Notes under the pieces: model-generated
Seen by the model: the letters and a program-made list of their open reading frames with translations, nothing else
What the model was told of the DNA's origin: nothing
Database searches by the model: none
DNA from: Eledone cirrhosa
Taxonomy: Eukaryota
Length of the DNA: 64,000 nucleotides
Reading direction: 5' to 3'
NCBI GenBank assembly: GCA_964016885.1
Contig: OZ024755.1
Span: 30,070,001-30,134,000 of the forward strand
Program-made: the position numbers and the translations under genes
Shown here: positions 1,282 through 56,919 of the stretch, piece by piece
Numbering within the stretch: the stretch's first letter is position 1
Layout of the letters: each line of letters starts with the position of its first letter

Positions 1282-1360
1282 GTACGTATATATATATTGT
1301 CACGTCACTAGTGCCAAGCTGAATCAGCCATTGCCTTTACCTTGAACAACATCATATATA

Positions 1361-1407
1361 GTGTATATATATAATATATATAATGTATATATATGTATAT
1401 ATATATG

Positions 1408-1499
<92 letters not shown>

Positions 1500-1510
1500 T
1501 ATATACATAC

Positions 1511-1542
<32 letters not shown>

Positions 1543-1544
1543 GT

Positions 1545-1602
<58 letters not shown>
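1361..1602. repeat. (TA)n microsatellite, left flank of the 468-bp array
   Basis: direct reading. Confidence 0.95.
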
Positions 1603-1603
<1 letters not shown>

Positions 1604-2925
1604 AACAATTAAGTTAAAGATGTACATCCATATATGTATACTGAAATACTAGTATGTATATGAATACACACACGTATACATATGTAGATGTACCAAGTTT
1701 TTTTCACTGGTCACTTTACTGTGAGTGGCCAGCTATTCCGTATGTAAACACACAGACAAACCGGTTTTTAGAGTCATACTGGTTTTTGAGGAAACACCTT
1801 TCCTCTATTCTCCAGAAAGCCAGACAAGGAATATTGAACTAGTTTCGTTGTTGTTACAACTCATCAGCAATATTTACCTATCTTCCGGCCTCTCTAGAGA
1901 ATCGTAAAAGCACATAGCGCTATATGCTTTTTCTATGAAAATTAGTAGTGGGCAGACTAATTTGCATAGAGTGTGAGTAAGTACCGGTTCAACGGAGACG
2001 ATAAAAACAAATAACGAAACGAAATTAAATTTCGTTTCGTTTGTAACTCACTTTTGTATGACTGACGCTTAAACAATTAAGTTAAAGATGTACATCCATA
2101 TATGTATACTGAAATACTAGTATGTATATGAATACACACACGTATACATATGTAGATGTACCAAGTTTTTTTCACTGGTCACTTTACTGTGAGTGGCCAG
2201 CTATTCCGTATGTAAACACACAGACAAACCGGTTTTTAGAGTCATACTGGTTTTTGAGGAAACACCTTTCCTCTATTCTCCAGAAAGCCAGACAAGGAAT
2301 ATTGAACTAGTTTCGTTGTTGTTACAACTCATCAGCAATATTTACCTATCTTCCGGCCTCTCTAGAGAATCGTAAAAGCACATAGCGCTATATGCTTTTT
2401 CTATGAAAATTAGTAGTGGGCAGACTAATTTGCATAGAGTGTGAGTAAGTACCGGTTCAACGGAGACGATAAAAACAAATAACGAAACGAAATTAAATTT
2501 CGTTTCGTTTGTAACTCACTTTTGTATGACTGACGCTTAAACAATTAAGTTAAAGATGTACATCCATATATGTATACTGAAATACTAGTATGTATATGAA
2601 TACACACACGTATACATATGTAGATGTACCAAGTTTTTTTCACTGGTCACTTTACTGTGAGTGGCCAGCTATTCCATATGTAAACACACAGACAAACCGG
2701 TTTTTAGAGTCATACTGGTTTTTGAGGAAACACCTTTCCTCTATTCTCCAGAAAGCCAGACAAGGAATATTGAACTAGTTTCGTTGTTGTTACAACTCAT
2801 CAGCAATATTTACCTATCTTCCGGCCTCTCTAGAGAATCGTAAAAGCACATAGCGCTATATGCTTTTTCTATGAAAATTAGTAGTGGGCAGACTAATTTG
2901 CATAGAGTGTGAGTAAGTACCGGTT
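1602..2925 (-). repeat. Left arm of the 468-bp tandem array (~2.8 units; hammerhead sense on minus strand)
   Basis: identical motifs recur every 468 bp (e.g. ORF starts 1654/2122/2590); hammerhead motifs on minus at 1830-1874, 2298-2342 and 2766-2810. Confidence 0.95.
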
Positions 2926-5900
2926 CAATATTCCTTGTCTGGCTTTCTGGAGAATAGAGGAAAGGTGTTTCCTCAAAAACCAGTATGACTCTAAAAACCG
3001 GTTTGTCTGTGTGTTTACATACGGAATAGCTGGCCACTCACAGTAAAGTGACCAGTGAAAAAAAACTTGGTACATCTACATATGTATACGTGTGTGTATT
3101 CATATACATACTAGTATTTCAGTATACATATATGGATGTACATCTTTAACTTAATTGTTTAAGCGTCAGTCATACAAAAGTGAGTTACAAACGAAACGAA
3201 ATTTAATTTCGTTTCGTTATTTGTTTTTATCGTCTCCGTTGAACCGGTACTTACTCACACTCTATGCAAATTAGTCTGCCCACTACTAATTTTCATAGAA
3301 AAAGCATATAGCGCTATGTGCTTTTACGATTCTCTAGAGAGGCCGGAAGATAGGTAAATATTGCTGATGAGTTGTAACAACAACGAAACTAGTTCAATAT
3401 TCCTTGTCTGGCTTTCTGGAGAATAGAGGAAAGGTGTTTCCTCAAAAACCAGTATGACTCTAAAAACCGGTTTGTCTGTGTGTTTACATATGGAATAGCT
3501 GGCCACTCACAGTAAAGTGACCAGTGAAAAAAACTTGGTACATCTACATATGTATACGTGTGTGTATTCATATACATACTAGTATTTCAGTATACATATA
3601 TGGATGTACATCTTTAACTTAATTGTTTAAGCGTCAGTCATACAAAAGTGAGTTACAAACGAAACGAAATTTAATTTCGTTTCGTTATTTGTTTTTATCG
3701 TCTCCGTTGAACCGGTACTTACTCACACTCTATGCAAATTAGTCTGCCCACTACTAATTTTCATAGAAAAAGCATATAGCGCTATGTGCTTTTACGATTC
3801 TCTAGAGAGGCCGGAAGATAGGTAAATATTGCTGATGAGTTGTAACAACAACGAAACTAGTTCAATATTCCTTGTCTGGCTTTCTGGAGAATAGAGGAAA
3901 GGTGTTTCCTCAAAAACCAGTATGACTCTAAAAACCGGTTTGTCTGTGTGTTTACATACGGAATAGCTGGCCACTCACAGTAAAGTGACCAGTGAAAAAA
4001 ACTTGGTACATCTACATATGTATACGTGTGTGTATTCATATACATACTAGTATTTCAGTATACATATATGGATGTACATCTTTAACTTAATTGTTTAAGC
4101 GTCAGTCATACAAAAGTGAGTTACAAACGAAACGAAATTTAATTTCGTTTCGTTATTTGTTTTTATCGTCTCCGTTGAACCGGTACTTACTCACACTCTA
4201 TGCAAATTAGTCTGCCCACTACTAATTTTCATAGAAAAAGCATATAGCGCTATGTGCTTTTACGATTCTCTAGAGAGGCCGGAAGATAGGTAAATATTGC
4301 TGATGAGTTGTAACAACAACGAAACTAGTTCAATATTCCTTGTCTGGCTTTCTGGAGAATAGAGGAAAGGTGTTTCCTCAAAAACCAGTATGACTCTAAA
4401 AACCGGTTTGTCTGTGTGTTTACATACGGAATAGCTGGCCACTCACAGTAAAGTGACCAGTGAAAAAAAACTTGGTACATCTACATATGTATACGTGTGT
4501 GTATTCATATACATACTAGTATTTCAGTATACATATATGGATGTACATCTTTAACTTAATTGTTTAAGCGTCAGTCATACAAAAGTGAGTTACAAACGAA
4601 ACGAAATTTAATTTCGTTTCGTTATTTGTTTTTATCGTCTCCGTTGAACCGGTACTTACTCACACTCTATGCAAATTAGTCTGCCCACTACTAATTTTCA
4701 TAGAAAAAGCATATAGCGCTATGTGCTTTTACGATTCTCTAGAGAGGCCGGAAGATAGGTAAATATTGCTGATGAGTTGTAACAACAACGAAACTAGTTC
4801 AATATTCCTTGTCTGGCTTTCTGGAGAATAGAGGAAAGGTGTTTCCTCAAAAACCAGTATGACTCTAAAAACCGGTTTGTCTGTGTGTTTACATATGGAA
4901 TAGCTGGCCACTCACAGTAAAGTGACCAGTGAAAAAAACTTGGTACATCTACATATGTATACGTGTGTGTATTCATATACATACTAGTATTTCAGTATAC
5001 ATATATGGATGTACATCTTTAACTTAATTGTTTAAGCGTCAGTCATACAAAAGTGAGTTACAAACGAAACGAAATTTAATTTCGTTTCGTTATTTGTTTT
5101 TATCGTCTCCGTTGAACCGGTACTTACTCACACTCTATGCAAATTAGTCTGCCCACTACTAATTTTCATAGAAAAAGCATATAGCGCTATGTGCTTTTAC
5201 GATTCTCTAGAGAGGCCGGAAGATAGGTAAATATTGCTGATGAGTTGTAACAACAACGAAACTAGTTCAATATTCCTTGTCTGGCTTTCTGGAGAATAGA
5301 GGAAAGGTGTTTCCTCAAAAACCAGTATGACTCTAAAAACCGGTTTGTCTGTGTGTTTACATACGGAATAGCTGGCCACTCACAGTAAAGTGACCAGTGA
5401 AAAAAACTTGGTACATCTACATATGTATACGTGTGTGTATTCATATACATACTAGTATTTCAGTATACATATATGGATGTACATCTTTAACTTAATTGTT
5501 TAAGCGTCAGTCATACAAAAGTGAGTTACAAACGAAACGAAATTTAATTTCGTTTCGTTATTTGTTTTTATCGTCTCCGTTGAACCGGTACTTACTCACA
5601 CTCTATGCAAATTAGTCTGCCCACTACTAATTTTCATAGAAAAAGCATATAGCGCTATGTGCTTTTACGATTCTCTAGAGAGGCCGGAAGATAGGTAAAT
5701 ATTGCTGATGAGTTGTAACAACAACGAAACTAGTTCAATATTCCTTGTCTGGCTTTCTGGAGAATAGAGGAAAGGTGTTTCCTCAAAAACCAGTATGACT
5801 CTAAAAACCGGTTTGTCTGTGTGTTTACATACGGAATAGCTGGCCACTCACAGTAAAGTGACCAGTGAAAAAAACTTGGTACATCTACATATGTATACGT

Positions 5901-6500
5901 GTGTGTATTCATATACATACTAGTATTTCAGTATACATATATGGATGTACATCTTTAACTTAATTGTTTAAGCGTCAGTCATACAAAAGTGAGTTACAAA
6001 CGAAACGAAATTTAATTTCGTTTCGTTATTTGTTTTTATCGTCTCCGTTGAACCGGTACTTACTCACACTCTATGCAAATTAGTCTGCCCACTACTAATT
6101 TTCATAGAAAAAGCATATAGCGCTATGTGCTTTTACGATTCTCTAGAGAGGCCGGAAGATAGGTAAATATTGCTGATGAGTTGTAACAACAACGAAACTA
6201 GTTCAATATTCCTTGTCTGGCTTTCTGGAGAATAGAGGAAAGGTGTTTCCTCAAAAACCAGTATGACTCTAAAAACCGGTTTGTCTGTGTGTTTACATAC
6301 GGAATAGCTGGCCACTCACAGTAAAGTGACCAGTGAAAAAAACTTGGTACATCTACATATGTATACGTGTGTGTATTCATATACATACTAGTATTTCAGT
6401 ATACATATATGGATGTACATCTTTAACTTAATTGTTTAAGCGTCAGTCATACAAAAGTGAGTTACAAACGAAACGAAATTTAATTTCGTTTCGTTATTTG

Positions 6501-6507
<7 letters not shown>
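2926..6507 (+). repeat. Right arm of the 468-bp tandem array (~7.65 units, inverted relative to left arm; hammerhead sense on plus strand); retrozyme-like
   Basis: CTGATGA cores start at 3364, 3832, 4300, 4769, 5237, 5705 and 6173 (468/469-bp spacing); ends in (TA)n at ~6507. Confidence 0.95.
3357..3401 (+). ncRNA. Type I hammerhead ribozyme (representative of 10 complete copies in the array)
   Basis: AATATTG-CTGATGA-GTTGT(AACA)ACAAC-GAAA-CTAG-TT-CAATATT: 7-bp stem I, 5-bp stem II, palindromic minimal stem III (ACTAGT), GUU cleavage triplet (cut 3394/3395). Confidence 0.85.
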
Positions 6508-6557
<50 letters not shown>

Positions 6558-6570
6558 GTATATATATATG

Positions 6571-6650
<80 letters not shown>
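6507..6650. repeat. (TA)n microsatellite, right flank of the array
   Basis: direct reading. Confidence 0.95.
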
Positions 6651-6656
<6 letters not shown>

Positions 6657-7144
6657 GCTTGAGATTGGTGTGGAAGTCGGACCTTCGTAGAGACCTGAAA
6701 ATCCGCCTCTTCATTGCTGTAGTGGAATTTGTGCTGCTGTACTGGTCTGAGACTTGGACACTGACCAAGAAACTCACTCAGATGGTGGATGGGTGCTACA
6801 CGAGAATGCTGAGGATGGCTCTGAACATTAATCAGTATACACTGAGGATGAAAAACTCAGAGCTGTATGGGAGCATCCCAAAAGTTAACTCAAAAGTGAC
6901 ACAGAGGAGACTGAGGTTGGCTGGACATGCTCACCGACATCCAGAGATGACATTGCACTCAGTGCTCCTTTGGGAGCCCCTACATGGACACACTAGAAGA
7001 GGAAGACCAAGGTTAACATATGTTGATGCCCTAAGGACAGACACTGGTCTGTTGGAGATGCAGGATATGGCAGCGATAATGAGGGACAGAGACCGCTGGA
7101 GAGAACTCGTCCATGGATCTCGGGAATTTTACCCGCCTTAGAGG
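6657..7144 (+). mobile_element. 5'-truncated RTE-clade LINE (C-terminal ORF fragment)
   Basis: KIRLF..VV..VLLY.SETWTL...RMLR...[17 protein letters not shown] is typical of the RTE C-terminus; probable TSD TATATACACACA (6645-6656 / 7145-7156). Confidence 0.85.
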
Positions 7145-7352
7145 TATATACACACATACATTATATATACAATATATATACACTATATATGATGTTGTCC
7201 AAGGTATTTTTATTATATGTAGACTTCCCCCTTTGTATTGTCCCCTTCTTTTGTGCCCCTGTGGCTAATAAAGAAACATGTATATATATATATATATACA
7301 TGTTTCTTTATTAGCCACAATGGCTGATTCGGCTTGGCACCAGTGACGTGAC

Positions 7353-7424
<72 letters not shown>

Positions 7425-7504
7425 GTCACGTCACTGGTGCCAAGCCGAATCAGCCATTGCCTTTCCCTTGGACAACATCATATATAGTGTATATATATAT
7501 ATTT

Positions 7505-28257: not shown

Positions 28258-28469
28258 AGAGTATTGAAGTTTGCTTGAAGCATTGTGGAATAATAAGGTA
28301 CATTTCTTTAAGTCATTTGGAAGCCTCGACAATGCAGATGGGTAAATCTCCGGGTAACAAGATCCGGTGGTGGAGAGAGAGATGTAAGTGGGTGTACGTT
28401 GAGATGCGTGGCGTGTATAAGACGGTATCGTGTAGAGGAATGAAGGAAAGAGCGTAAAGGATAAAAATA

Positions 28470-28975
28470 AAAATAACAACACGAGAAAGAGTTACCTTGG
28501 GAGAGATTTAATTGTCCCTATATATTTCGGATTCACATCCATCAACTGGGGGAGGGAGGGCCTCGACATCCACCTGGCTCACTCGGGCCCCTCCCTGCGA
28601 AGATGCCTCTCCAGGAAACCCGGGAAATCAACTGACGCGTGCTCCCTCAGAGACTGCCCGATACGCCATGCGAACTGTTGCCTACGCACATACGTCGTGT
28701 ATAAGATAGAATGTAACAAGTGCAACCAATACTATATAGGTAGCACAATCCGGCCGTTGCACATCCGGATCAAGGAACACACTAACACCAGGGCCTCGTC
28801 TTTCCGGAAACACATAGCCAAATGCGGAAAGAAAGACGGAAGGCCTATTGTCACAATTCTAGCGACAGAAAGAAACGTCGGCACGTTACGTATCACGGAA
28901 GCACTTTGGATCAAACGCCTAGGGCCACAATTAAACAACCGATCCGAGAGAAGCGAAATGAGGTGGTTGGTTTAA
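28470..28975 (+). pseudogene. Penelope-like element GIY-YIG endonuclease remnant
   Basis: VYKIECNKCNQYYIGSTIRPLHIRIKEH...LRITEALWIKRLGPQLN (GIY-YIG with CxxC, conserved R, E, N). Confidence 0.85.
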
Positions 28976-37685: not shown

Positions 37686-38376
37686 ATTTTATTTTATTTT
37701 ATTTTATTTTATTTTATTTTATCTTATTTTTTATCTTTTATCTATTTTTTATCTATTTTTTATCTATTTCTTATCTATTTCTTATCTATTTCTTATCTAT
37801 TTTTTATCTATTTTTTTATCTATTTTTTATCTACCTCTTATCTATTTTTTATCTATCTCTATCTCTTAACTTGTGCCCATCCGTCTATGATATGTTATTT
37901 GTATTAGTGTATACTGTATGTGTTGCATACGGGTGCTTGTGTGTAGGTGCATGCGGGTGCTCATGCTTATGCATATAATTGTATGTAGCTGTATGTTAAC
38001 GTAACTCTGCCCAACTGTGAATAACATTTCTTATTTTTTATTTTTTATTTTTTATTTTTTATTTTTTATTTTTTATTTTTTATTTTTTATATTATTTTTT
38101 ATTTTTTATTTTTATTTTTATTTTTTATTTTTTATTTTATTTTTCATTATTTTTATTTTATTTTTATTTTTATTATTATTATTATTTTTATTTTTATTTT
38201 TATTCTTAATCTTATTCTTTTTTTTTTTTTATTCTTAATCCTATATTTTTATTTTACTCTTCTTATTTTACTCCTTTTACTTTACTCTTTAAACTCCTCC
38301 CAACTTATGGTATCCCCACATATATTCTTCTGTTTTTGGCTTTGTCAATGCTTGTATACTATGTATTTACTCTTTA

Positions 38377-38422
38377 TGCTCTGAAGAGTCCCACTTCTAG
38401 TGTGGACGAAACACTGTTAGCA
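38377..38422 (+). ncRNA. Type I hammerhead ribozyme
   Basis: TGCT-CTGAAGA-GTCC(CACTTCTAGTGT)GGAC-GAAA-CACTG-TT-AGCA, followed by ATTAAA and (TA)n. Confidence 0.8.
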
Positions 38423-38464
38423 ATTAAAGATATACCTATGTTCTAAGCGCTCTTTGTTGTTATT

Positions 38465-38515
<51 letters not shown>

Positions 38516-39109: not shown

Positions 39110-39714
39110 TTATATTTCCCTAGAACACATAGATACTATAAGATCTTTAACAGAAACTGTGTTAAAATTAGCTATTCCTGCGGTCCCCTATTAAGTCCTA
39201 TATCCTCAACAAAACATCACCTAGAGAAAATCAAACTTGCTCCTGTAGAATCAAAAGTGAATGCCCATTACAAGGTAAATACAACACCAAAGCCATTGTA
39301 TATGCGGCTAATGTGACAACCATCAGCAACAACCATCCAGTCACCAGTGAACGATATGTGGGTATGACGCAAGACAGATTCAAAACGCGTTGTTACTCAC
39401 ATGTCGCATCCTTTCGACATCCAGAAAAAAGATTTACAACAGCTCTGGCTAGCAGAATCTGGGATTTGAAAGACCAAGGCATCCAATATAAACTAGATTG
39501 GTCAATTTTGAACCAATCTAAAAAATATGCTAGAGGAACAAGAAAATGCACGCTCTGCATAAATGAAAAATTTTGGATATTGCAAAATCTTAAATCACCA
39601 AAGACCTGCCTGAACACAAAGACGGAAATTTTTACCAGTTGCCCACACATGAAATCACACCTGCTTTCCAGCTCATATAAACTTAACACACTTTCAGATA
39701 CTTATCCTCCATAA
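39110..39714 (+). pseudogene. Penelope-like element C-terminus (GIY-YIG endonuclease)
   Basis: KIFNRNCVKISYSC then RYVGMTQDRFKTR..SH..SFR...W.LKD...W.IL...C.LC..EK..I...LN.K.E....CPH. Confidence 0.85.
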
Positions 39715-52232: not shown

Positions 52233-52432
52233 GTTTGAAGTTAGAAGGCCAGGACAATGCAGGTATGGATATAGAATATAAATATATATGCAAAAGATGA
52301 CGCTGAGAATTAGTCTTTTACTTTAATTTATTTATATATCCTGATATTTCGAGATAATATCTCTTCGTCTGACTTGACAACCCACTAGGACACTGGATTA
52401 ACCCCTTTACTTTCCTCAGACGAAGAGATATT

Positions 52433-52484
52433 ATCAACTCTGATGAATCCGGCCTTGTGCTATGATGAAACGAGCGTCAGTGAT
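52433..52484 (+). ncRNA. Type I hammerhead ribozyme preceded by a short fold-back
   Basis: ATCAACT-CTGATGA-ATC...GAT-GAAA-CG(AG)CG-TC-AGTGAT, then ATTAAA and (TA)n. Confidence 0.7.
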
Positions 52485-52528
52485 TAAATGTCTGAAAGTT
52501 TAAACACTCTTTGATTTTCATTTACATT

Positions 52529-52736: not shown

Positions 52737-52781
52737 AGTCATAGTTCTTTCGTCACACACTCTGTGACCTCTTCAGTGACT
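52737..52781 (-). ncRNA. Type I hammerhead (family B)
   Basis: minus: AGTCA-CTGAAGA-G-GTCACA(GAGTG)TGTGAC-GAAA-GAAC-TA-TGACT. Confidence 0.65.
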
Positions 52782-53443
52782 GGGGATTTCTTTCTTTGTT
52801 TCTGTGCCTCTCCTTTGTTCTGTCCTACGCCATTTTGTTTCTGTGTGTGTGTTGTGTGCTCAGTCTGCGCATGCGCCACATCCCGGTGTATGTGTGTGTT
52901 TATGTGTTTATTTACATGTTAGTGGTTGGTTGTTTGTTCTATGTGTGTGTGTGTGTGTTTTCATTTTGTCCTTAATTGTAAGTTGTGATGTTGCTGTTCC
53001 ACTCATATTTTCTATTTAATTTTGGTTGTAATTCTTTTATGTTTATTGCCTCTGTAATTTGTCTAAACATTGCGTCTTTTCTGTGTTTAGATTCTATAGA
53101 ATCTACACACAGAAAAGACATATAACAGAGGTACATATGCATATTGTACCTTTTGATTTTTATTGTAATTTTAATGTTGGTAAAGGTATATTATATTATA
53201 TTATATTACATTGTATCATATATAATTCCTGCTCTATATAACCACCTTTGTTTAGCTCTAGGTTTTTTTTGCTTTGGACTATATTTGTAATATGGTTCTT
53301 AATGTTATATACATCCTTAGTAATTTTTATTATATATTTTTATTATTTTTATTATGTATTTTTGCAATACTTTAGTGTATGTACACTCCATATTCTTCGG
53401 AGCTTCCGGCTTGTATCTGCCGATATTACTTCTTGTTGTTTTG

Positions 53444-54404: not shown

Positions 54405-54784
54405 CATATATATATATAAATGTATGTGCAAATGTGTATACATATATATGTGCTTGTGTGTGTAATTGAATGATGCAGGCAGGTTTGCATAAGCATATAT
54501 ATATATATATATATAAACGCACATATCCAGCATGAATCAATAATTAGTAAATCCACGTTGAGATTTCCATATGAAATCTTCAGCTCAGCTTACTACTTGA
54601 TGCCGATCAAATATTGATCATTGGCAATTACTTTAGTACATCATTGTATGACTAAGCTGGTAATTAGCCTTTGTCAGTGGTTGCCTAGATTCGGTATCAT
54701 GATGTGTAGCAAATGGCTGATAAATCTCCCACCGCATGGGACAGTCCTGATCTAATATAGAACCATTCAGATACATCTAAAGAA

Positions 54785-56420
54785 TCACCTGTCTAACACA
54801 TCACCTGTATAACACATCACTTGTCTAACACAGTACCTGTCTAACACATCACCTCTCTAACATATCACCTGTCTAACACAGCACCTGTCTAACACACTAC
54901 CTGTCTAACACAGTACCTGTCTAACACATCACCAGTCTAACACATCACCTGTCTAACACACTACCTGTCTAACACATCACCTGTCTAACACATCAGCTGT
55001 CTAACACATCACCTGTCTAACACATCACATGTCTAACACATCACCTGTCTAACACAGTACCTGTCTAACACATCACCTGTCTAACCCAGTACCTGTCTAA
55101 CACAGCACCTGTCTAACACAGTACCTGTCTTACTCATCACCTGTCTAACACAGTACCTGTCTAACACATCCCCTGTCTAACACAGTACCTGTCTTACACA
55201 TCACCTGTCTAACACATCCCCTGTCTAACACAGTACCTGTCTTACACAGTACCTGTCTAACACAACACCTGTCTAACACATCACCTCTCTAACATAGCAC
55301 CTGTCTAACACATCACCTGTCTAACACATCCCCTGTCTAACACAGTACCTGTCTTACACATCACCTGTCTAACACAACACCTGTCTAAAACATCACCTGT
55401 CTAACATAGCACCTGTCAAATACATCACCCGTCTAACACATTACCTGTCTAACACATTACCTGTCTAACACATTACCTGTCTAACACATTACCTGTCTAA
55501 CACATTACCTGTCTAACACATTACCTGTCTAACACATCACCTGTCTAACACAGTACCTGTCTAACACATCACCTGTCTAACATATCACCTGTCTAACACA
55601 TCATCTGTCTAACATAGTACCTGTCCTAACACAGTACCTGTCTAACACAGTACCTGTCTAACACATCACCTGTCTAACACATCACCTGTCTAACACAGTA
55701 CCTGTCTAACACATCACCTGTCTAACACAGTACCTGTCTAACACATCCCCTGTCTAACACAGTACCTGTCTTACACATCACCTGTCTAACACATCCCCTG
55801 TCTAACACAGTACCTGTCTTACACAGTACCTGTCTAACACATCCCCTGTCTAACACAGTACCTGTCTTACACATCACCTGTCTAACACAACCCCTGTCTA
55901 ATACATCACCTGTCTAACACAGTACCTGTCTAACACATCACCTCTCTAACATAGTACCTGTCTAACACATCACCTGTCTAACACATTATCTGTCTAACAC
56001 AGTACCTGTCCTAACACAGTACCTGTCTAACACAGTACCTGTCTAACACATCACCTGTCTAACACATCACCTGTCTAACACAGTACCTGTCTAACACATC
56101 ACCTGTCTTACATATCACCTGTCTAACACACCCCCTGTCTAACACAGTACCTGTCTTACACATCACCTGTCTAACACAGTACCTGTCTAACACATCCCCT
56201 GTCTAACACAGTACCTGTCTTACACATCACCTGTCTAACACAACACCTGTCTAATACATCACCTGTCTTACACATCATCTGTCTAACACATAACCTGTCA
56301 TACACATCACCTATCTTACACATCACCTCTCTTACACATCACCTGTCTAACACAGTACCTATTACACTACTTGTCTAACATACCACCTGTCTAATACATC
56401 TCCTGTCTAACACAGGACTG
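54785..56420. repeat. 16-bp minisatellite (~100 copies)
   Basis: CACCTGTCTAACACAT / TACCTGTCTAACACAG variants. Confidence 0.95.
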
Positions 56421-56919
56421 TTTTAACACATCACTGGTTTATCACACCTCCAGTTTAGCACACCACTAGTTGAACACATCACTCGTTTAACACGGCTTGA
56501 GTTTATCAGAACACTTAAAAGAGGAAGTGTGTAACCGAGCACTAGTTTATGACGCAAGTTTATCATGATACGGATCTAATACAGTACCAGATAAATAAAG
56601 CTCTAATATCAACGAATACCCACCTGTCAGTGTATCAGATTACCACCTTACCAGTCGATATGGCGTTGGAAAAATTGATATGGGGTTACCAGAGGCTTCT
56701 GTCTGCTGTCTTAATTTTGGAAAGTCCCATTGGACTGTATAGTGCTTCATACAGAAAATGATCGGTGTTCGAAATGGTAAACTATTAAAGGTCTTTTGGA
56801 TCAGAACAACAATAATGATAGACCAACTGCTTAGTGTAACGAAACAATGGGCAATAAATACTTCCCAGCATTGCAACAACAATGGTGTACATGCAGCAGA
56901 TTTGTGTCAAGACAATAAT

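Follow-up and report, generated by a model that had tools for sequence, protein, structure and literature searches.

How does a non-coding unit of 468 nt come to lie in about ten nearly identical, ribozyme-bearing copies between two tracts of TA dinucleotides? The question is raised by a 64,000-nt stretch of the Eledone cirrhosa genome (assembly GCA_964016885.1, contig OZ024755.1, positions 30,070,001 to 30,134,000 of the forward strand; hereafter the window), in which a sequence-only reading had described a hammerhead-ribozyme concatemer. The extent of that array (1602-6507), its unit length (468 bp, or 469 where an A run is longer), the near-identity of its units and its insertion in (TA)n, which both outer ends adjoin, were all borne out, as was the figure of ~10.5 units when taken as the total over both arms. 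It is not, however, a single head-to-tail concatemer: the hammerhead lies on the minus strand in 1602-2928 and on the plus strand in 2923-6507, i.e., the array consists of two divergent arms joined on a 6-nt microhomology and lying between (TA)n tracts (Table 1). This inversion, missed at first, is the most informative feature of the array. We consider that the element is a non-autonomous retrozyme without long terminal repeats (a non-LTR retrozyme), mobilised by the protein of a Penelope-like element (PLE) from a monomeric RNA circle, a reading to which we give a probability of roughly two in three (0.68).

With unit position 1 set at the first base 3' of the predicted hammerhead cleavage site, variation among the 11 window units compared is confined to C97T (3/11) and to a run of seven or eight A residues (A7/A8). 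The unit has a GC content of 35%, a predicted fold (-155 kcal/mol, z -11.2) that contains stems I and II, and, as first described, no credible open reading frame (ORF), the longest ATG-started ones reaching 19 aa (ribozyme strand) and 62 aa (opposite strand). AATAAA, already reported as lacking, is absent from the ribozyme strand, as is ATTAAA, and an ORF scan of the unit found no reverse transcriptase (RT) plus GIY-YIG frame of an autonomous PLE. Ten complete type I hammerheads are present, one per unit as had been claimed, but split over the two arms instead of sharing one orientation. Their stems, CUGAUGA, GAAA, palindromic stem III and GUU site are those given by the sequence-only reading, except that stem I is longer than the 7 bp stated there; by sequence, the core has every element of the type I class (CUGANGA, GAAA, NUH, stems I-III, stem I open), with an Rfam score below gathering. 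The Rfam search proposed earlier matched Hammerhead_HH9 at 10 units (37.7 bits, E 9.6e-7), under the gathering score of 52. The motif is not a chance product, because it arose in 0/3000 dinucleotide shuffles of the unit.

Sixteen hammerhead variants, drawn from the window family and from three sister families in this genome, can be aligned with hardly any gaps; 93.4% of cells are paired (31-51% in slid controls) and 9/22 pairs have changed on both sides. The structure was drawn by us from the window copy and the rows are related, so these figures are support and not a probability; they support a hammerhead under structural constraint, with apparent compensatory stem changes across the sister families. 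Stem III is invariant among the variants, and alone it has only 2 bp and a 2-nt loop; two copies are predicted to co-fold with an intermolecular stem III, and in the GUU dimer the cleavage-site U is paired too, giving an 8-bp palindrome. The cleavage site is GUU in the window, and GUC and GUA in relatives and sister variants. Dependence of such hammerheads on dimers has been published (PMC4209133, PMC7229834; these and all other papers are drawn on here in excerpt).

The insertion is one of many. We mapped the window, 26 stretches picked by similarity and another 28 that were for the most part the first matches to the core on contig C1 (loci bear L numbers), and the same layout recurs: (TA)n, inverted arm, direct arm, (TA)n. 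In 37 two-armed loci, all 74 outer ends (two of them, one each in L040 and L051, read by eye) fall at unit 229-235 (site 1, 39 ends) or 301-305 (site 2, 35 ends), ~70 nt apart. Single-armed, interrupted or chimeric loci were excluded from this count (L033, L034, L036, L039, L047, L050, L052, L106, L108-L113, L123, L125, L127, L129, L130); seven of them show by eye a short stub of the opposite end, and the left end of L112 and L130 lies at neither site. Genome-wide, an exact 31-nt core gave 5,142 matches (control 0) and a variant-core pattern 5,977 more (control 7); among the latter are a subfamily whose stem II carries a compensatory change and an arm with 31 cores in a row. Site-2 ends joined to TA number 2,257, and site-1 ends joined to TA 773 on the plus strand, the minus-strand count being inflated by overlapping matches. 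The search for other TA-flanked arrays that had been suggested thus returned thousands of hits, and the genome holds over 2,000 insertions of the window family.

The two ends do not combine at random. Pairing was tested by end pattern alone on contig C1 up to 122 Mb (95 site-2 and 71 site-1 ends; overlapping rows collapsed, 5 rows past 122 Mb dropped). Divergent neighbours no more than 16 kb apart numbered 39, of which 36 combined both site types, 2 had site 1 twice and 1 had site 2 twice. The last proved to be two separate insertions, while both site-1/site-1 pairs are real, leaving one end of each type in 36/38 paired loci, where independence predicts 49% (p 1.4e-9); a further 88 ends had no divergent partner under the exact patterns. 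Non-TA target duplications of 12-13 bp (a length that counts up to 6 nt overlapping the element ends) are found at 7/36 loci, the other flanks being uninformative TA; none is readable at the window locus because its left tract is pure or near-pure TA.

The inner ends, by contrast with the fixed outer ones, are random. All 76 are spread evenly, with 1 lying within 5 nt of the cleavage site against 1.6 expected; we therefore dismissed a junction at that site as proof of a cleaved 5' end, and the overlap of the window's own arm junction with a cleavage site is chance. An apparent hot spot at unit 116-121 was not significant (p 0.12). Among 36 central junctions, 16 overlap by 1-9 nt, 5 are blunt and 15 contain 1-38 extra nt. 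Arms reach 13, 22 and 31 units, with an intact core in each unit. In five of 38 loci (L040, L055, L120, L124, L178) both arms stop at unit positions that nearly coincide and that fall in internal palindromes or hairpins, which probably reflects joining via self-complementary sequence.

This anatomy points to PLEs. An inverted, 5'-truncated copy plus a tail at one end is a PLE hallmark (PMC3846280, PMC8557442), and a purified PLE protein, modelled as a dimer, nicks and extends both strands of AT-rich DNA in vitro and starts at two internal RNA sites bracketing the tail (PMC11167929), from which we take the term for the stretch between sites 1 and 2. The window family has the inverted 5'-truncated arm, a tail at one end only and an AT-rich, microsatellite target. 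The genome is rich in elements with RT and GIY-YIG (10,597 GIY-YIG candidates), several of its PLEs carry the Cys motif described for Neptune and Nematis (PMC8557442), and five insertions of two of its PLE families (L092, L096, L098, L104, L099) combine a tail-less inverted end with a tailed end in (TA)n. A search for the partner (Pfam GIY-YIG scan, flanks of about 60 loci, divergent-hammerhead pattern) yielded several PLE families and more retrozyme families; a PLE fragment beside L184 was rejected, as it is separated by (TA)n and reads as a separate insertion.

Two young PLE families deserve mention in their own right. One (L086, L090, L091, L093, L099, L145) has its own minimal hammerhead with palindromic stem III, and at L099 includes a 3.3-kb two-armed insertion, 99.7% symmetric, with one tailed end; the tail in this family (L090/L099) measures ~48 nt. 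The other (L088, L089, L092, L095, L096, L144) has ORF copies ~98% alike and a tail of ~62 nt; in its terminal repeat lies a hammerhead-like fold whose core is non-canonical. It is a candidate partner, with no homology to the unit.

What, then, was the template? We compared 251 units from 35 two-armed loci, leaving aside the A run and bases at junctions. A total of 165 variant sites (27/35 loci) are fixed throughout both arms; many of them are subfamily markers, and 45 of the 77 distinct fixed sites occur in one locus only. Non-fixed variants comprise 103 seen in a single unit, 12 that recur inside one arm and 2 that recur in both. Divergence between near-full units is 0.14% inside an arm and 0.13% from arm to arm, as against 1.2% between loci. 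G385A is absent from all window units, unlike other loci. Across the cleavage site, 309 of 310 true junctions keep the unit spacing and the other has a 1-nt deletion (311 rows, one spurious, with a few overlapping stretches counted twice). All this fits one template haplotype per insertion event, with no RNA end at the cut site. Because of these two features and of arms of up to 31 units, a monomer circle fits best, and the multimeric or circular RNA source first proposed can be narrowed, as the variation favours such a circle over a heterogeneous multimer. Among the runs recorded as RNA, none was listed as containing the unit, which speaks neither for nor against expression. Four contig sets of uncertain type all join back after 468 nt, as both a circle and a tandem array would; in one (X1, a public run) loose (TA)n ends stand at unit 235 and 304, and another (X4) has a GUC site together with the compensatory pair in stem II.

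We postulate the following course of events. A genomic array would be transcribed, and neighbouring hammerheads, probably as a double hammerhead via the palindromic stem III, would cut the transcript and free 468-nt monomers, as their structure and published relatives suggest; a host ligase, e.g., RtcB, would close the circle, as PMC7229834 leads us to expect. An RT-GIY-YIG protein of a PLE, probably a dimer, would bind the circle and nick both strands of (TA)n ~12 bp apart, in keeping with the observed targets and duplications. One 3' end would then prime at site 1 and the other at site 2, which would account for the positions and pairing of the outer ends, and each RT would circle for a variable number of turns and stop at random, as arm lengths and inner ends indicate. 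The two cDNA ends would finally be joined head-to-head, and the joins that we see use microhomology, are blunt or contain short filler. The full proposition, that the arrays record twin-primed rolling-circle reverse transcription in which one PLE dimer, one RNA circle and two fixed start sites serve both staggered (TA)n strands, primed together, for up to 14 kb per event, stands in our judgement at even odds. In L1 twin priming both nicked strands also prime, and the inverted arm is joined by microhomology, as in the window family; the second primer site of L1 varies, however, and its first cDNA stops near that site, whereas here both sites are fixed and the inner ends random. The earlier suggestions of a young, non-autonomous, retrozyme-like element and of copying by a Penelope RT all gain from the thousands of dispersed, near-identical copies, from the inverted-arm-plus-tail signature with target duplications, and from the variation that favours a monomer circle over a heterogeneous multimer.

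Several observations weigh against the PLE-and-circle reading. No PLE terminal repeat homologous to the unit was found at about 60 of the 150 listed GIY-YIG loci. The GUU form of the hammerhead may cleave slowly, as its cleavage-site U is predicted to be paired in the dimer; hammerhead mutants did not reduce insertion in vitro (PMC11167929), and 8/9 Xenopus dimers were without cleavage (bioRxiv 10.64898/2026.07.22.740005). The pairing rule has exceptions, L177 and L178 being site-1/site-1 and L050 having site 1 on both sides. Some variants recur every 2-3 units (C97T and A8 in the window, L037/L038, L053, L046, L131), and non-fixed variants occur in both arms (window C97T in 3/11 units, L048 G437T in 2/9); a pure monomer circle does not predict recurring variants, so some templates were multimeric or some arrays were edited later. 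Besides, a homogeneous young parent array would give a homogeneous linear transcript and the same picture.

This last point leads to an alternative that we hold to be unlikely, namely PLE twin priming on an uncleaved, linear multimeric transcript of the parent array, with the hammerhead slow or incidental. Seamless junctions and shared variants fit it equally well if the parent array is homogeneous, the C97T pattern of the two window arms could be two copies of one linear run, and the mutant experiments show cleavage to be dispensable in vitro (PMC11167929). Yet arms of 13, 22 and 31 units with intact cores speak against it, as do the 2 cross-arm variants against 103 singletons, given that older arrays would transmit their many unit-specific variants; truncated copying would, moreover, only shorten arrays over the generations, and the compensatory ribozyme change across families is a further argument against an incidental hammerhead.

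Decidedly improbable, in our view, is a short PLE-type insertion of one or two units per arm followed by local tandem amplification and homogenisation, as has been proposed for vertebrate retrozymes (bioRxiv 10.64898/2026.07.22.740005). The variants of period 2 or 3 in single arms (12 sites in 6 loci) do resemble local duplications. Long inverted repeats can also convert each other. Very young loci, however, are multimeric in both arms with zero or few single-unit variants (L032, 0 in 14.4 units; L118, 0 in 19.8; L042, 2 in 17.9), both arms would have to expand independently with flanks and duplications intact, and any arm longer than one unit already requires a circular or multimeric template. 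We see little chance that the RT instead, on reaching the 5' end of a linear, cleaved monomer, jumped to a 3' end and so built multimers without a covalent circle: the A-to-B family chimera L050 (see below) tells us that template switching or recombination occurs, but its switch lies in a shared hairpin away from the cut site, the cut-site junctions are clean, inner ends are not enriched there and arrays are without mixed haplotypes. Read chimeras can produce inverted tandem arrays, but an assembly or chimeric-read artefact is hardly credible for the same two ends at thousands of loci with target duplications and locus-specific haplotypes, and the X1 contigs, which may not be independent of the assembly, have (TA)n ends at both of these unit positions.

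Returning to the retrozyme mobilised by a PLE, the element has every sequence-level feature of the animal non-LTR retrozymes of coral, mussel and axolotl (Cervera and de la Pena 2020, PMC7229834). Like them it is a non-coding tandem unit with one type I hammerhead, a GC content <50%, strong self-pairing, thousands of copies, target duplications >4 bp (here 12-13 bp) and co-occurring PLEs; low GC, dispersed arrays and the lack of an LTR-type internal region also agree, the last without a separate search for primer binding site and polypurine tract (PBS/PPT). Its 468-nt unit slightly exceeds their 150-450 range, and the excerpt of PMC7229834 has neither the word "inverted" nor fixed start sites nor a tail, all of which the window family has. 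The weak palindromic stem III, predicting double-hammerhead cleavage, is shared with newt satellite 2 and axolotl HHR_Amex1 (PMC7229834, PMC4209133), whose sequences differ from the window hammerhead.

With endonuclease-bearing PLEs (PMC3846280, PMC8557442, PMC11167929) the family shares the head-to-head inverted arm, one-end tail, (TA)n targets, ~10 bp target duplication, internal start in a stem-loop and hammerhead upstream of the start sites; in contrast to these elements it has no ORF, each arm is multimeric, with as many as 31 units, the pairing of ends is quantified, and the tail is ~70 nt, where the PLE tail is optional and 30-40 bp. A PLE RT copying circles into tandem cDNA has been proposed, not shown, in PMC7229834 and PMC7761336, the latter a review in which retrozyme repeats are without a conserved motif pointing to a partner. 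Dependence on PLEs is also common to vertebrate retrozymes, viewed as non-autonomous PLE derivatives by Li, Clavereau and Pollet (bioRxiv 10.64898/2026.07.22.740005); their evidence, as excerpted, is co-occurrence and pLTR homology, with local amplification suggested, whereas here the insertion anatomy favours arrays made at insertion.

The first impression that this is not a described family holds in part. The class is known (PMC7229834), as is its link to PLEs (bioRxiv 10.64898/2026.07.22.740005), whereas the family and its insertion anatomy are undescribed in the literature searched; that literature gave no report of octopus or cephalopod retrozymes or of two-armed retrozyme insertions, although supplements (Fig. 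S9 of PMC7229834, preprint tables), subscription journals or repeat databases may hold the family. It is a further member of the known animal non-LTR retrozymes, one whose mechanistic footprint is unusually clear; it is young and abundant enough for the insertion reaction to be read off its genomic copies, with two fixed start sites (each used on one strand), a ~12-bp duplication, random stops and a single haplotype per event. An animal retrozyme is thereby tied to PLE machinery by mechanism, not by co-occurrence. The origin of PLE tandem and inverted structures and the role of circles as insertion templates are open in the excerpted PMC8557442, PMC7229834, PMC11167929 and the 2026 preprint; if our reading is right, one reaction would yield the tail, the inverted arm and the tandem repeats alike, and its reconstitution could start from a naturally occurring 468-nt circle in which a 70-nt recognition region is mapped. 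Minimal RNA and target can be named, making the circle-plus-PLE mechanism directly testable.

The family has relatives in the same genome. The hammerhead, the start-site hairpin and both ends recur in no fewer than three sister retrozyme families and in two subfamilies: family B (L050, L097/L134, L149-L176), family C (L098, L136) and family E (L181-L190), beside variants of the window family, A (L179, L180, L191, L192). Family B has a unit of 472 nt, its outer ends lie at the homologous counterparts of sites 1 and 2, with one end of either type in each of 5 two-armed loci, and its AT-rich hairpin holds an internal (TA)n of variable length. The 4-bp stem of the start-site-1 hairpin is invariant in 12/12 rows from the sister families. 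In the chimera L050 (4817-6406; contig C3 near 124.406 Mb) a family A arm passes into ~2.8 family B units at unit 288, inside a hairpin common to both families, and both outer ends are site 1; a template switch between two RNAs or later recombination could have produced it. At window 5605-5612 (unit 338-345) and its homologues, ATGCAAAT, which we take to be an octamer-like motif, is kept in 10/12 aligned rows; its C is unpaired in families A and B, and a TATA-like stretch follows in B, C and E. Together the two are a possible candidate for an internal promoter.

Table 1. Features of the retrozyme array in the window (strand is that of ribozyme sense; unit positions as defined in the text)
Feature	Position	Strand	Remarks
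Left (TA)n target tract	1354..1603		pure or near-pure TA
Inverted arm, 2.84 units, ribozyme sense leftward	1602..2928	-	outer end unit 235 (start site 1, tail-less); inner end unit 313
Head-to-head arm junction, 6-nt microhomology	2923..2928		overlaps a cleavage site
Direct arm, 7.66 units	2923..6507	+	outer end unit 304 (start site 2), tail present
One complete 468-nt monomer, cut to cut	5268..5735	+	predicted RNA circle
Type I hammerhead, extended stem I, 5-bp stem II, palindromic stem III	5687..5758	+	predicted cut 5735/5736
Further hammerhead copies	3346-3417, 3814-3885, 4282-4353, 4751-4822, 5219-5290, 6155-6226	+	
Further hammerhead copies	1814-1885, 2282-2353, 2750-2821	-	
Small hairpin, unit 225-238	6428..6441	+	start site 1 in loop and 3' side; 4-bp stem
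Tail, 69-75 nt separating start sites 1 and 2	6433..6507	+	at right outer end only; long hairpin and U-rich stretch
Right (TA)n target tract	6505..6650		

Elsewhere in the window there are three more hammerhead-like motifs of other families, at 38369-38470 (+), 52428-52520 (+) and about 52750-52790 (-); some 60-90 nt beyond each of the first two, TTG or TTGTTT abuts (TA)n, as at PLE ends. GIY-YIG-like PLE fragments lie at 28436-28975 (+), where Pfam GIY-YIG passes, and at 39172-39714 (+), with no Pfam family. An open frame at 6650-7141 (+), directly right of the array's (TA)n, has no Pfam match and presumably resembles the C-terminal end of a LINE ORF, and the window's short interspersed elements (SINEs) resemble, we assume, those of octopus. 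Matches to miRNA and snoRNA models were rejected as hairpin and AT noise below gathering scores; the spurious miRNA matches stem from short inverted repeats at 7257-7460 and 945-1054, centred on (TA)n or a hairpin, which are likely small inverted retroelement or MITE stubs. Finally, a 16-bp minisatellite runs through ~103 copies at 54784-56434.

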